Shown: positions 1,006 to 4,647 of the stretch, piece after piece
Layout: every line of letters begins with the position of its first letter
Position numbering within the stretch: position 1 is the first letter of the stretch
IMG/VR virus record: IMGVR_UViG_2657245521_000007
Origin: a virus
Lineage: Duplodnaviria; Heunggongvirae; Uroviricota; Caudoviricetes
Strand: one strand, 5' to 3'
Length of the DNA stretch: 4,647 bases
Notes under the pieces: generated by a model
What the model was told of the DNA's origin: nothing
The model's input: only the letters and a program-made list of their open reading frames with translations
Databases searched by the model: none
Position numbers and translations under genes: made by a program

Positions 1006-1478
1006 ACCTCAATCTCTCTGACCGTTCCGCCTGCTTCTTTGAATTTTGCAATCAAACTGTCAACCTTATGCTCGAACTGACCATAACCAGCACCCGGCAG
1101 TGAAGCCCAGATATTGCTGCAACGGTCGATTGCCTGACGAATATCACCGCGATCAATCATCGGTAAAGCGCCACGCTCTTTAATCTGCTGCAATGCCACT
1201 GCGTCCTGGCTATTGGGGGAAAAGTCTTTCAAACCAAGCTGTTTACAGTAAGCATCCCACCACCGGGAAAGAATCTGGTAGCGTCCAGCAGCCGTTGATT
1301 TAAGTTTTGGGTTTAGCGTGACAAGTTTGCGAGGATGATCGGAGTAATCAGTGAATAGCTCACCACCTACAATAACGTCGTAGCCGTGATTGCGGGTTGG
1401 CTGTCGCCCGTTATCCGTTCCTTCTGACCACGCCAACATATCGAGGAAAGCTTTACGCTGAGGATTAAGATTTAGCAT
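1002..1478 (-). CDS. R: Endolysin, lambda R-type lytic transglycosylase
   Basis: 158-aa ORF. From residue 7 onward ([20 protein letters not shown]..., [19 protein letters not shown]...) it is near-identical to lambda R as recalled, with a divergent N-terminus. It sits between holin and Rz as in lambda. Confidence 0.92.
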
Positions 1479-1782
1479 TTTTCACCCCTGTCAGTCGTTC
1501 CCAGAAGTATGTCAGTGCAACCGAACCCATCGCACCACTAATCCCCGCTGTCGCGAGAATCATGTAAATACTGAATCCACTTTCGATACTGTTCAGGCCA
1601 CCAATAACACCGGTGAATCCCGACACCACTATCTGAGCCAAAGCATTTATCCAGCTCCACGTTGCTTTACTCTGCTTCACATCTATCAGGTAGCGGACCA
1701 GACCGCCCCAACCTGCGATGATCAGCAAAACGAGCCAGAACGCTCCGGCAAGGCTCTCTTTTTCGTGCATATGAATAGCCAA
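1465..1782 (-). CDS. Holin (three predicted transmembrane segments, class I topology; not lambda S-like in sequence)
   Basis: Small ORF immediately upstream of the endolysin, overlapping it by 14 nt. It has three hydrophobic segments (about residues 10-32, 42-64, 70-95) and a charged C-terminal tail ([11 protein letters not shown]). The ORF-track start at 1782 is TTG; an in-frame ATG lies at 1770 (MHEKESL...), so the true start is ambiguous. Confidence 0.75.
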   Translation of the reverse strand: MAIHMHEKESLAGAFWLVLLIIAGWGGLVRYLIDVKQSKATWSWINALAQIVVSGFTGVIGGLNSIESGFSIYMILATAGISGAMGSVALTYFWERLTGVKNAKS

Positions 1783-1884
1783 TGTTTCGCCGCCGACAAA
1801 AGGCCGGGACGTTAAATGTCAGAAATCAGGCTCACGGGGTAATTTAACGACAAAGCACGGAGTTGATGCTCCCCGCAAGCCTGG

Positions 1885-1910
1885 AATAAAAAAGCCAGCA
1901 TGTAGCTGGC
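1885..1910 (-). terminator. Intrinsic terminator, minus strand (second of two in the Q-S spacer)
   Basis: Minus-strand RNA reads GCCAGC-UACAU-GCUGGC (6-bp stem, 5-nt loop) followed directly by UUUUUUAUU. Stem at plus 1894-1910, A-run at 1888-1893. Confidence 0.45.
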
Positions 1911-1987
1911 AACAGAGGGTTAAGCAATATCAACTCAACAGCTGAAGACACCCTGGCTGGGGTACGTTGGAAGGATACTCACCGCCC

Positions 1988-2022
1988 AGAAACAGAAAAG
2001 CCCAAGGCTTTAAACCTCGGGC
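1988..2022 (-). terminator. Intrinsic terminator, minus strand (first of two in the Q-S spacer; tR'-like)
   Basis: Minus-strand RNA reads GCCCGAGG-UUUAAAG-CCUUGGGC (8-bp stem including one G.U pair) followed by UUUUCUGUUUCU. It lies about 70 nt downstream of the Q-like stop codon. Confidence 0.4.
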
Positions 2023-2079
2023 TTGAATTTGGATTACTGCCAGTGCGTACAACATTGGCAAAATATCAGATTTACATAA

Positions 2080-2108
2080 AATATATGATTTTTAATCCAG
2101 TTTTGCAA
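2080..2108 (-). promoter_or_regulatory. Candidate sigma-70 late promoter (pR'-like) overlapping the 3' end of the Q-like gene
   Basis: On the minus strand, TTGCAA (-35, plus 2103-2108), a 17-nt spacer, then TATATT (-10, plus 2080-2085). Its position just upstream of the two terminators and the lysis genes mirrors lambda pR'/qut/tR'. Hexamer match only; not tested. Confidence 0.3.
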
Positions 2109-2781
2109 TATCTTGCTGTGAAAATGTGGTCTTTTGTTTTGAACGTGTTTTCGTTAAAAGCAATAAAGCTTGGCTATCAAGCTGTAGAAAAATGTGCTTC
2201 ATTGCAACCCAGCGTTCAGTAAATGTCTCAGACCAGTTTTTTGATGTCACTCCCACCAGTGATGCCAACTCCTGGTATTCATAGGTCTTACGCCCTGCCA
2301 GCTCGTTCTTCACATCCTGTGCCGCCAGCCAGATCAACTTCTTCAAACGTTCCAGTGTCTTACCTGCAATTTTCCTGGTACCCAACAGAGTCTTAAACTC
2401 GCTCCATGCCCACTGCGTTATGGTGACCTGATGTTCCCAGCGAACACTTTCGCTGTAACTCCACAGCAACCACGCTTTCTGATGTTCTTCGAGAGACAGA
2501 ACCGCGCGGCGCCATGATGATGTTGAGAACTCGATCGGACTGACCAGGGCAATGGATGAGCCTTTCGCCCGTGACTGCTTACCGGGTATCGGCGGATTAT
2601 CCAGCGTTATTAACCTGCCGGTCACTTCATCCAGAATGCGCGGTTTCTTTCGTTTGTATGTACCGGTATCAAATTGCGCATGCTCCTGCCAGGCCACCAA
2701 CTGCCCTTTCGTCGCACCACTCAGATCGGCGGTGGCCACCATGAGCTGCTCGCGAACAAACTGTAAATATTGGGTATTCAT
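2092..2781 (-). CDS. Putative late-gene antiterminator (Q-like), family unassigned
   Basis: 229-aa ORF in the position Q occupies in lambdoid phages: directly downstream of rusA/ylcG and upstream of a promoter-terminator spacer and the lysis cassette. ATGA overlap with the ylcG stop. The sequence is not lambda Q (no cysteines, so no zinc finger; Trp-rich). The call is by position and size, not by recognised homology. Confidence 0.55.
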   Translation of the reverse strand: MNTQYLQFVREQLMVATADLSGATKGQLVAWQEHAQFDTGTYKRKKPRILDEVTGRLITLDNPPIPGKQSRAKGSSIALVSPIEFSTSSWRRAVLSLEEHQKAWLLWSYSESVRWEHQVTITQWAWSEFKTLLGTRKIAGKTLERLKKLIWLAAQDVKNELAGRKTYEYQELASLVGVTSKNWSETFTERWVAMKHIFLQLDSQALLLLTKTRSKQKTTFSQQDIAKLD

Positions 2782-2918
2782 GCGGCCGCTCCTTTCAGTG
2801 TTTTGGCGTAATTTTTCAGTATTCGGTAATCAGTCACGACAGAACCGGAAAACCGGTACAACCGCAGGCGCATCCAGCGAAGGCGGAGGTGTTCTGTGAT
2901 ATAAGATTCAAACGTCAT
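2778..2918 (-). CDS. ylcG: Small protein YlcG-like (46 aa), not in the ORF track
   Basis: My translation of the minus strand gives [50 protein letters not shown] overlap with the rusA stop (ATG at 2918-2916) and ATGA overlap with the Q-like start. Size and position match ylcG of the E. coli DLP12 prophage (between rusA and the Q gene). Confidence 0.5.
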
Positions 2919-3277
2919 TCGCCCTCCAGTTCTGTAATGGTCAGCTCCAGCTTCCCGCCTTTAACGATCGGCATCTTCACAACGCGGTAATCAACAACCT
3001 GCGCATCATCCAGCCAGAAACCTGCTTTAGTAAGTGCGTCAAAAGCGGCTTTTTGCAGATTATCCAGGTCACGGCGACGGCGATCCGGCATGTGGCACTC
3101 AATGCGGATTTTCACTGGCATAGCCAGGCCGATATCCAGCATGGAGCCTTTGATGATTCGGGCGACGTTATCGCGGTATGCTTGCCCCTCTGCGCTGATG
3201 TGCGTGCGCCCGCGATTATGGCGGTAATAGCGATTATTGCTCGGAGGCCAGGGTAATGTGATGCTGTAGGTATTCAC
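2915..3277 (-). CDS. rusA: RusA Holliday-junction resolvase (crossover junction endodeoxyribonuclease)
   Basis: 120-aa ORF starting [24 protein letters not shown]..., near-identical to E. coli prophage RusA as recalled. ATGA overlap with the ybcO stop. Confidence 0.93.
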
Positions 3278-3564
3278 GCCTTAATAACCCCCTCTTTCAG
3301 CCAGATAACCTGTGTTCTCGCCATACCTTCCAGCGCGCATTCTTTTGCATATCCAGCGTCAACAAAATGCGTGCGACGGTCGATCTCGTCGTGACAGGCA
3401 GAACATGCAATGGTGGCAATAAGGTCTGGCAGTTTAATACCGGTGCCGCACAATCCAGCCAGCCGGATATGTGCCAGTACAGACGTTTCAGAATTGCCAT
3501 TACATACGCCAGGGATTCTTACCTGGCATTCCCGACCACGCGCTGCTTTTCTCAAATCAGCCAT
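3274..3564 (-). CDS. ybcO: YbcO-like DUF1364 protein (Cys-rich, putative metal-binding nuclease)
   Basis: The ORF-track start at 3603 is a TTG. The in-frame ATG at 3564 ([14 protein letters not shown]...) is preceded by a strong Shine-Dalgarno AAGGAGGAG and gives 96 aa, the size of DLP12 YbcO. Conserved cysteines: CQVRIPGVC and CSACH. Confidence 0.85.
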
Positions 3565-4332: not shown

Positions 4333-4354
4333 ATAATTATGCCGTGTTGATTTC

Positions 4355-4647
4355 TAGACTGGCCCCCTGAATCTCCAGACAACCAGTATCACTTAAATAA
4401 GTGATAGTCTTAATACTAGTTTTTAGACTAGTCATTGGAGAACAGATGATTGATGTCTTAGGGCCGGAGAAACGCAGACGGCGTACCACACAGGAAAAGA
4501 TCGCAATTGTTCAGCAGAGCTTTGAACCGGGGATGACGGTCTCCCTCGTTGCCCGGCAACATGGTGTAGCAGCCAGCCAGTTATTTCTCTGGCGTAAGCA
4601 ATACCAGGAAGGAAGTCTTACTGCTGTCGCCGCCGGAGAACAGGTTG
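4355..4647 (+). mobile_element. IS2 insertion sequence (IS3 family), orfA-proximal end, continuing beyond the right window edge
   Basis: Terminal sequence TAGACTGGCCCCCTGAATCTCCAGACAACC... followed by the IS2 orfA leader and ATG, matching the IS2 end as recalled. The element boundary is uncertain by a few bp. Only about 290 bp of the 1.3-kb element is in the window. Confidence 0.9.
4446..4647 (+). CDS. insC: IS2 transposase OrfA (InsC), 5' part; CDS continues beyond the window
   Basis: Translation [67 protein letters not shown] matches IS2 InsC as recalled (helix-turn-helix region). Shine-Dalgarno GGAG lies 6 nt upstream of the ATG. Confidence 0.92.

Follow-up and report, generated by a model that had tools for sequence, protein, structure and literature searches.

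A stem-loop in the late leader of a lambda-like Escherichia coli prophage is a conserved, cis-acting RNA element of the sense strand, with a stem that is maintained by compensatory and wobble changes. It lies at positions 1883 to 1827 on the minus strand of the window (the whole 4,647-nt stretch of DNA analyzed here), between the genes for antiterminator Q and the holin. Hundreds of lambda-like prophages from gut bacteria have retained this RNA stem-loop, which had not been described before. Its limits are drawn from the minimum-free-energy (MFE) fold, pair probabilities, a covariance model, covariation counts and RNAalifold, and its standing as a real conserved RNA is well supported; we class it with the cis-acting leader RNA structures of phage late operons. 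The most likely role that we infer for it is that of a leader element governing the processing, stability or translation of the late lysis mRNA.

The window covers the late-regulatory and lysis region of the prophage. All of the relevant genes are on the minus strand, in the order NinB-like, NinE-like, ybcO, rusA, Q, a 310-nt spacer, holin, lysozyme and Rz/Rz1, while bor is on the plus strand. Q (bp 2092-2781) is of the phage 82 type (Pfam PF06323, E-value: 9.6e-97). The holin (bp 1465-1782) is of the LydA type (PF16083, E-value: 3.9e-21; RefSeq CDS) and has two potential starts: the ATG annotated in RefSeq at 1770 and an in-frame TTG further upstream at 1782. The same locus is found in prophage Sp8 of E. 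coli O157:H7 Sakai, where Q is ECs_1620 and the holin is ECs_1621. The spacer between these two genes is present at ≥80% coverage in 809 of 5426 complete E. coli genomes (812 with any match), and the window's own hairpin variant is likewise carried by 812 of the 5426 (approximately 15%). A search of the window for tRNA and tmRNA genes found none.

The hairpin consists of a 5' arm CAGGCUUGCGGGG (1883-1871), a 31-nt loop (1870-1840) and a 3' arm CCCCGUGAGCCUG (1839-1827). An earlier reading of the sequence only had proposed an 11-bp helix between GGCUUGCGGGG (1881-1871) and CCCCGUGAGCC (1839-1829), with one U.G and one G.U pair, located 30-100 nt upstream of the holin start. All of these coordinates are correct, and the helix extends for two further pairs to 13 bp (1883-1871 with 1839-1827), of which nine are G:C. 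The distance is also roughly right: measured from the 3' end of the hairpin, it is 57 nt to the ATG at 1770 and 45 nt to the TTG at 1782. When minus-strand positions 1890-1783 were folded, this helix dominated the MFE structure (-39.4 kcal/mol, z = -3.44) with pair probabilities of 0.94-1.0, and none of 200 shuffled sequences folded as well. The plus-strand RNA folds less stably (-35.8 kcal/mol, z = -2.67), and the hairpin taken alone shows the same difference (-23.7 kcal/mol on the minus strand versus -19.3 kcal/mol on the opposite strand). A covariance model matches the window hairpin with a score of 64.2 bits (E-value: 1.5e-15).

The same reading had noted a second inverted repeat, GTTAAAT/ATTTAAC, and had suggested that the 11-13 bp stem and the GUUAAAU/AUUUAAC helix are mutually exclusive and form a switch controlling holin translation or RNA processing. 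The repeat is present and is actually 8 bp in length, CGUUAAAU (1849-1842) pairing with AUUUAACG (1817-1810), but it does not rise above chance. A perfect helix of at least 7 bp occurs in 20% of dinucleotide-preserving shuffles of the same 108 nt, and forcing the second helix costs 12.6 kcal/mol, leaving it with an ensemble probability of approximately 0. In favor of a switch, both helices exist in the window and the 5' half of the second falls within the conserved loop motif UUGNUAAAU. However, its 3' partner (1817-1810, minus strand) is found only in the window's near-identical clade, and the loop does not pair with its 3' flank significantly better than with shuffled sequence, whether in the window (z = -0.73) or over the classes of the element (mean z = -0.66). 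The two helices have no nucleotides in common. They are exclusive only in a nested fold and would topologically make up a pseudoknot, one in which 9 nt alone would have to span the 13-bp stem. Because of these chance and energy figures, the clade-specific partner and the non-significant pairing between loop and flank, we judge the second helix to be a coincidence of AT-rich sequence and its 3' half at 1810-1817 to be a chance match, and the switch model to be highly improbable. The GTTAAAT/ATTTAAC pair was also considered as integron attC boxes, but the order of the boxes is reversed and the pair occurs in one clade only.

The main hairpin is widespread. When the spacer was compared with isolated phages by BLAST, the only matches outside the window's phage type were in mEp237 and the P22-like Salmonella phage UPF_BP1, and these were restricted to the terminator-plus-hairpin segment, located approximately 45 nt upstream of a different holin-sized gene. 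A search with a pattern based on the shared loop identified at least 120 viral contigs with 87 distinct variants. As this first DNA pattern fixed much of the loop, loop conservation in the first set is partly circular, and two further sets were used to counter this. The first of these was chosen solely by the presence of one Phage_holin_8 holin: the element was found in 80 of 80 such loci, at the same place, in 31 variants. The second was a scan of one genome per species using a pattern restricted to the true invariants. It produced 25 matches, 21 of which were confirmed by the covariance model, all in Enterobacteriaceae (Citrobacter, Klebsiella, Enterobacter, Pseudescherichia, Pseudocitrobacter and Huaxiibacter); the four non-enteric matches were rejected by the model and are about the number expected by chance. 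In total, at least 119 distinct copies were collected from viral contigs, isolated phages and the 21 Enterobacteriaceae genomes. Named carriers include HK225, mEp237, Louie, Gifsy-2, Chris1, Citrobacter phages and many temperate phages of Klebsiella and Enterobacter, and the site is without any annotation in these named phages. The element is absent from the K-12 prophages DLP12 and Qin, which therefore cannot serve as annotated reference copies, and from the corresponding leader of E2348/69 PP2.

Comparison of these copies shows a common layout: a lower stem of 6-10 bp, an upper stem CGGG/CCCG and a loop of 31-35 nt, with one bulged nucleotide on the 3' strand in most classes and none in the window's class. 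The lower stems differ by class while complementarity is kept. There are at least six classes: that of the window (CAGGCUUG/UGAGCCUG), CAGGCU/AGCCUG, CCCAGACCCU/AGGGUCUGGG, CAGGACCG/CGGUCCUG, CAGGUUC/GAACCUG and CAGGCCC/GGGCCUG. When 99 distinct copies were aligned to the model, 92% of cells were paired, changes on both sides were seen at 6 of 12 pairs, and the covariation value of 0.321 compares with 0.163 for shuffles (none of 500 reaching the observed value) and with at most 0.091 for slid partners. An alignment made with MAFFT, and thus not fitted to the structure, gives a similar picture (90.2% paired; 0.221 versus 0.154 for shuffles and at most 0.101 for slid partners), and RNAalifold recovers the same helix with compensatory pairs from a separate alignment of 17 sequences. 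As the sequences are related by descent and recombination, the shuffle control overstates their independence, and more weight rests on the slid controls and on the existence of several distinct stem classes. Conservation and covariation in related prophages, on which the sequence-only reading had staked its helix, thus come out in its favor, with G.U pairs enriched on the late-mRNA strand.

That reading had also argued from the window's two wobble pairs that the structure is favored in the late mRNA only, and this argument generalizes. When both strands of the distinct copies were folded, 63 G.U pairs were counted in the late-mRNA sense and 28 in the antisense. The sense fold is the more stable in 68 copies versus 28, and the two strands differ by -1.33 kcal/mol on average. 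Within the holin-defined set, GGCUC, GGCCC and GGUCC are alternative 5' arms facing an unchanging GGGCC, and this variation of C and U across from a constant G keeps the pairing only in sense-strand RNA.

The strand bias and the compensatory changes bear on a reading in which the site functions as DNA, either as a recombination joint at a lambdoid module boundary or as a protein-binding or cruciform site, with the RNA structure being incidental. Recombination does occur here. Tandem double copies flank inserted genes in six loci (L080, L037, L121, L102, L227 and L224), and in Gifsy-2 of Salmonella the stem of a single relic copy (NC_010393.1, 14554-14652, between STM1023 and STM1024) is weakened, and this copy precedes a truncated holin start, STM1025 and the moron gtgA, all ahead of the real holin; across the collection, the element joins many different left and right neighbors. 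A recombination linker, however, requires identity and not pairing, and the stem shows compensatory substitutions and paired deletions. A G.U bias toward the sense strand is not expected for duplex or cruciform DNA, and a promoter scan called no site within the element, where the last and critical base of a TGnTAAAT-like motif is C in most classes. A function at the DNA level is thus very unlikely. As a recurrent joint for the insertion of extra genes, including that for the virulence effector GtgA, the element is nevertheless of interest.

A coding function does not account for the conservation either. The classes differ by 1-2 nt indels in both stem and loop, with no conserved frame, and the start of a possible leader mini-ORF is not conserved (GUG, AUG, ACG or GAG), even though a hypothetical protein is annotated at this place in some records. 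A role as a tRNA minihelix or as a substrate of RNase P, suggested by a 12-bp stem followed by ACCA, was set aside since ACCA is present in only one clade.

Two loop motifs are near-invariant among the 99 distinct copies, including those of the holin-defined set that is independent of any pattern: CAUC (1865-1868 on the minus strand of the window) and UUGNUAAAU, which reads UCGUUAAAU in the window (1842-1850). A third segment, GCUUUG, is seemingly invariant in the first set and is replaced by GCCUAC, GCCUUC or GACUGC in the holin-defined set; owing to this variation, we take it for neither a boxA nor an RNase E consensus. A candidate inner 4-bp helix, AUCA/UGAU, has flanking pairs that never vary and a central pair that is unpaired in one third of copies. 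Like the loop motifs, the stem ends CAG...CUG and CGGG/CCCG are near-invariant while the middle of the stem covaries, a pattern that is typical of sequence-specific contact.

This pattern supports an interpretation in which the loop (CAUC ... UUGNUAAAU) is displayed to a host RNA-binding protein or small RNA that tunes holin translation, with no processing involved. We looked for a phage-encoded partner by clustering the ORFs around 119 loci. No specific co-occurring protein was identified: only the generic Rz spanin is near-universal, and the holins, endolysins and Qs each split into a number of unrelated clusters. With no phage protein accompanying the element, its invariant single-stranded loop probably contacts a host factor, both in this interpretation and in the processing model preferred below, and the element is confined to Enterobacteriaceae, which have such factors in common. 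Also in favor of this interpretation, only about 23 nt separate the hairpin from the AUG in the Phage_holin_8 clade. However, the spacing between hairpin and start codon is variable (about 23 to 71 nt), and each holin family has its own type of ribosome-binding site. The loop has no convincing match to a CsrA GGA, to Hfq ARN repeats or to boxA, the boxA-like GCUUUG being the segment that varies, and no Hfq cross-link is reported in Sakai Sp8. We consider a regulator-binding site of this kind possible but on the doubtful side. A broader version, that the element represents a new class of cis-regulatory RNA in which a host factor (protein, small RNA or metabolite) acts through the loop to gate the lysis cassette on Q-antiterminated transcripts, is somewhat less likely again. 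Were such gating to operate, host physiology in many Enterobacteriaceae prophage carriers would influence when lysis occurs and, among relatives that carry toxins, when phage and cargo are released.

The surroundings of the hairpin are as regular as its structure. On the minus strand of the window, the spacer reads in the order promoter, isrJ-like RNA with terminator t1, trailer, terminator t2 with U6, hairpin, start-proximal hairpin and holin. The promoter is a sigma-70-like candidate for the late promoter pR' (2108-2080; TTGCAA, 17-nt spacer, TATATT) that was found by consensus scan only. It overlaps the end of Q, and its position fits the start of a short promoter-proximal leader RNA (2076-1997) resembling Rfam isrJ (30.4 bits, below the gathering score of 37). 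This RNA is ended by t1, which was called by a terminator scan (stem 2024-1998). In phage ENT1, isrJ is found with a full score at the equivalent position. The trailer (1945-1915) is conserved and consists of a small hairpin UCAGC/GUUGA (1945-1941 with 1934-1930), which shows a compensatory G:C to A:U change, and an ACCCUC box (1920-1915). In many phages this block sits after a tRNA gene cluster, and it has been kept in the window without a tRNA gene. In the sampled loci, one to four phage tRNA genes end approximately 70 nt upstream (10 of 10). Directly upstream of the hairpin is the intrinsic terminator t2 (1910-1888; stem GCCAGC/GCUGGC at 1910-1894, U6 at 1893-1888), also from the terminator scan, and its T-run is separated from the stem by the A/U-rich linker AUUC (1887-1884).

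This arrangement recurs elsewhere. A terminator directly precedes the element in 88 of 99 distinct copies, with a median of 9 nt from the start of its T-run to the stem; the 6 nt located 5' of the stem are 89% A+T, and a linker of the AUU/UUU type is present in 106 of 115 distinct copies. From the end of the element to the first lysis gene there are 39-71 nt in the first set and approximately 23 nt in the Phage_holin_8 clade. The downstream holins belong to at least five Pfam families (3_3, 2_3, 2_1, 3_1 and holin_8), and the upstream antiterminator comes from either of two unrelated Q families (PF06323 or PF03589). Given this range of five holin and two Q families, the element belongs to the 5' edge of the lysis cassette, whichever holin, endolysin, Q or upstream gene is present. 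The adjacent terminator, the conserved loop and the sharing of the element across unrelated holins and unrelated Qs had been missed by the sequence-only reading.

The proximity of terminators raises the question of whether the hairpin is itself a stop signal. Its stem is G+C-rich, as in intrinsic terminators. Terminators of the lambda tR' type resemble it in having such a stem in the same leader, where the element adjoins true terminators, and in several classes a short U-run is found 4-8 nt past the stem. The element differs from them in having a far larger loop (31 nt for the window and 33-35 nt for other classes, rather than 3-8 nt), in lacking a flush U-tract and in lying downstream of the real terminators. 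The stem is followed by AUUUCUG in the window and by ACCCUUU or AACCAAC in other classes, with no U-tract within 0-2 nt, and the terminator scan called only an inner, partial stem. By definition, then, it is not an intrinsic terminator. A looser possibility is a transcriptional fail-safe, in which the hairpin and its G-poor, C/A-rich flank would pause or terminate polymerase that has leaked through without Q, by way of Rho or a non-canonical hairpin-dependent stop, and so keep the holin off in lysogens. Strong selection against leaky holin expression is to be expected, one or two intrinsic terminators lie immediately upstream, and the 25 nt past the stem (9% G, 35% C and 36% A) resemble a Rho loading site in composition. 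For a Rho site, however, a G-poor stretch of only about 25-45 nt is short; the Phage_holin_8 clade is without a U-run, and the conserved loop is left unexplained. A fail-safe of this type seems unlikely.

The element matches no Rfam family and no paper among those searchable. None of the 4227 Rfam families, including isrJ, AgvB, AsxR, STnc100, C4, riboswitches and ribozymes, overlaps it in the window at E ≤ 10, and five loci with other variants gave nothing overlapping it at E-values up to 5. No paper was found in a literature search for the loop sequence, or for RNAs from STM1023/STM1024 of Gifsy-2. Known small RNAs are encoded in this part of prophage genomes: StxS/isrJ-type RNAs, the anti-sRNAs AgvB and AsxR, and PasA/PasC lie between Q and the lysis genes (PMC7547250, PMC4104026, PMC8550237, bioRxiv 10.64898/2026.05.13.724894). 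These have the same hosts as the element and lie in the same moron-tolerant region, beyond the late promoter and beside the holin. However, they are discrete transcripts with their own terminators, several of them antisense to the late operon, whereas the element is in the sense orientation. As no terminator is present between the hairpin and the holin start, it is not a terminated sRNA of the Hfq type. It also differs from PasA/PasC and the EcOnc sRNAs in sequence, orientation and locus, and the leader of E2348/69 PP2, which is the PasA locus, is without it. No Hfq-bound RNA or EcOnc RNA is reported in Sakai Sp8, which carries the locus.

Other lambdoid RNA structures are comparable in acting in cis through the host transcription machinery, namely lambda nut boxA/boxB and HK022 put. 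Those sites are promoter-proximal in early operons, upstream of the terminators that they suppress, whereas the element is located in the late operon, past its leader terminators. As a nut site it is further disqualified by GCUUUG, which lacks the C of boxA (GCUCUUUA-like consensus) and varies; put-type RNAs, with two adjacent stem-loops upstream of terminators, are set apart by position alone.

A processing signal combined with a 5' stabilizer is the explanation that we tentatively prefer, at a level somewhat short of probable. Because of the terminators, essentially no polymerase other than the Q-modified form is expected to transcribe the hairpin: in a lysogen, transcription would halt at the terminators, and the hairpin would be made only upon the read-through that Q permits. 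The read-through RNA would carry non-coding cargo upstream of the lysis genes, consisting of the promoter-proximal RNA and often of tRNAs or moron genes, each ended by a terminator. A cut in the conserved A/U-rich linker (AUUY) between terminator and stem, for example by RNase E, would give the lysis mRNA a new 5' end with a stable hairpin (approximately -20 kcal/mol) either directly at it or only a few nt away. Stem-loops at the 5' end protect E. coli mRNAs from 5'-end-dependent decay by RNase E. The terminal hairpin could shield the lysis mRNA in this way and thereby set the holin level and lysis timing. By analogy, it would resemble the 5'-terminal stabilizing stem-loops of the ompA type, in which a stable hairpin in an untranslated leader is preceded by few unpaired A/U nucleotides. 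It differs from these in being internal to the primary transcript, such that a prior cut is needed to make it terminal, and in having a large, sequence-conserved loop that is needless for a simple stabilizer. Sites for RNase III of the T7 R1.1 type have about 20 bp of coaxial double-stranded RNA (two turns); the stem here, at 12-14 bp with one bulge, is shorter than is typical, and the candidate inner 4-bp helix lacks support as an extension of it.

We count in favor of this processing and stabilizer model the structure, strand bias, fixed position, A/U-rich linker, upstream tRNA genes and independence from partner proteins described above, as well as the weakened stem of the Gifsy-2 relic, which now precedes only a truncated holin. 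Other observations count against it. A stem alone would suffice for stabilization, leaving the invariant loop motifs and the CAG...CUG and CGGG/CCCG stem ends unexplained; the linker fits the preference of RNase E only loosely; related phages (DLP12 and Qin of K-12, PP2 of E2348/69) manage without the element; and Sakai Sp8 has no reported Hfq-bound RNA. If the element does set the stability or translation of the lysis mRNA, then lysis timing and prophage leakiness have a determinant that has gone unrecognized. For late-gene control, lambda-like phages serve as the textbook example, yet a conserved structured element located between their late terminators and the holin has no Rfam family. It is short (approximately 65 nt) and inducible carriers such as HK225 and mEp237 are available, making it directly testable.

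RNA structure in a lambdoid holin leader, presumed to set holin output and lysis timing, has a precedent in the sdi-type stem-loop of lambda S. Structures of that type overlap the ribosome-binding site and dual starts of one holin family, whereas the element precedes five unrelated families by 23-71 nt. In the window, the 3' end of its stem is 45-57 nt upstream of the two starts, and in neither the window nor the other loci is there overlap with the Shine-Dalgarno sequence or start codon. It is a separate, start-proximal leader hairpin in the MFE fold of the window (1811-1788, minus strand) that covers the GGCGG Shine-Dalgarno-like sequence before the TTG at 1782. Separate start-proximal hairpins are also seen in other classes of the element.

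Tandem copies of the element, the conserved hairpin in the lysis-gene leader, bracket inserted genes in six of the phage and prophage loci compared with the window: L080 (6996-7522), L037 (86-676), L121 (7739-10446), L102 (3072-4381), L227 (4453-6020) and L224 (101-625). In L080, a truncated holin start follows the first copy. A similar arrangement is found in Gifsy-2 (L210, 2510-4990): its single relic copy also precedes a truncated holin start, and STM1025 and the effector gene gtgA lie downstream. The tandem copies around inserts and the Gifsy-2 relic argue that the element is a recurrent recombination joint for the insertion of morons.

The element is not found in every lysis leader. In E2348/69 PP2 (L123, 2616-2700), the leader of the phage 21-type holin has a terminator but not the hairpin, a pattern that shows at least two different leader designs in use among lambdoid lysis cassettes. 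In this prophage, PasA is antisense and lies between the esterase gene and the holin.

In class B loci, the holin Shine-Dalgarno sequence lies within a second, small hairpin (UCCGA..UCGGAGG; L001, about 1465-1490, minus strand, with equivalents in other loci of the class). Because its stem varies both by compensation (UCCGU..ACGGAGG) and by wobble pairing (UCUGA..UCGGA), this hairpin is predicted to be a start-proximal control structure separate from the element. Between the element hairpin and the holin ribosome-binding site, class B loci such as L001 and L013 carry a CA-rich stretch, CAUCACACACAGC, resembling both C/A-rich translational enhancers and GcvB target sites. This stretch is absent from the 3' flank of the window's own element variant. 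The window holin has a candidate second start, an in-frame TTG four codons 5' of the annotated ATG (1770-1782, minus strand; MAIH-MHEK...). It is preceded by GGCGG, which is buried inside a hairpin (1811-1788), and the holin may have a dual-start (holin/antiholin) arrangement.

Just 3' of Q, the window encodes a short RNA (1997-2076, minus strand) that matches the Rfam family isrJ at 30.4 bits, under the gathering score; the RNA at the same position in Enterobacter phage ENT1 (L125, 1887-1960, minus strand) scores 72.7 bits. Based on these promoter-proximal matches next to Q, isrJ appears to be, in systems with a phage 82-type Q, the transcript that starts at the late promoter and stops at a terminator, a counterpart of lambda 6S RNA and StxS. 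The trailer (window 1915-1945, minus strand), a small covarying hairpin with an ACCCUC box, is conserved across many phages (for example, L129 1340-1411), in which it separates the terminator from phage tRNA clusters (Asn, Gly, Thr, Arg, Met). Its retention in the window, despite the absence of any tRNA gene there, suggests that a tRNA cluster was lost or replaced.

The spacer segment at window 1700-2150 has a 100% identical counterpart in the genome NZ_CP027587.1 (L128), where Q (2893-3465) is annotated as N-terminally truncated and integrase-side genes come immediately after it. These features indicate that the same lysis module is also present in a rearranged, probably defective, prophage. 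At the edge of the window begins an insertion sequence resembling IS2 (about 4350-4647, plus strand; terminal repeat-like TAGACTGGCCCCCTGAATCTCCAGACAACC), which splits the prophage a short way upstream of the NinB-like gene; its IS3-family orfA-type reading frame begins at 4446 (plus strand) and extends past the window end.
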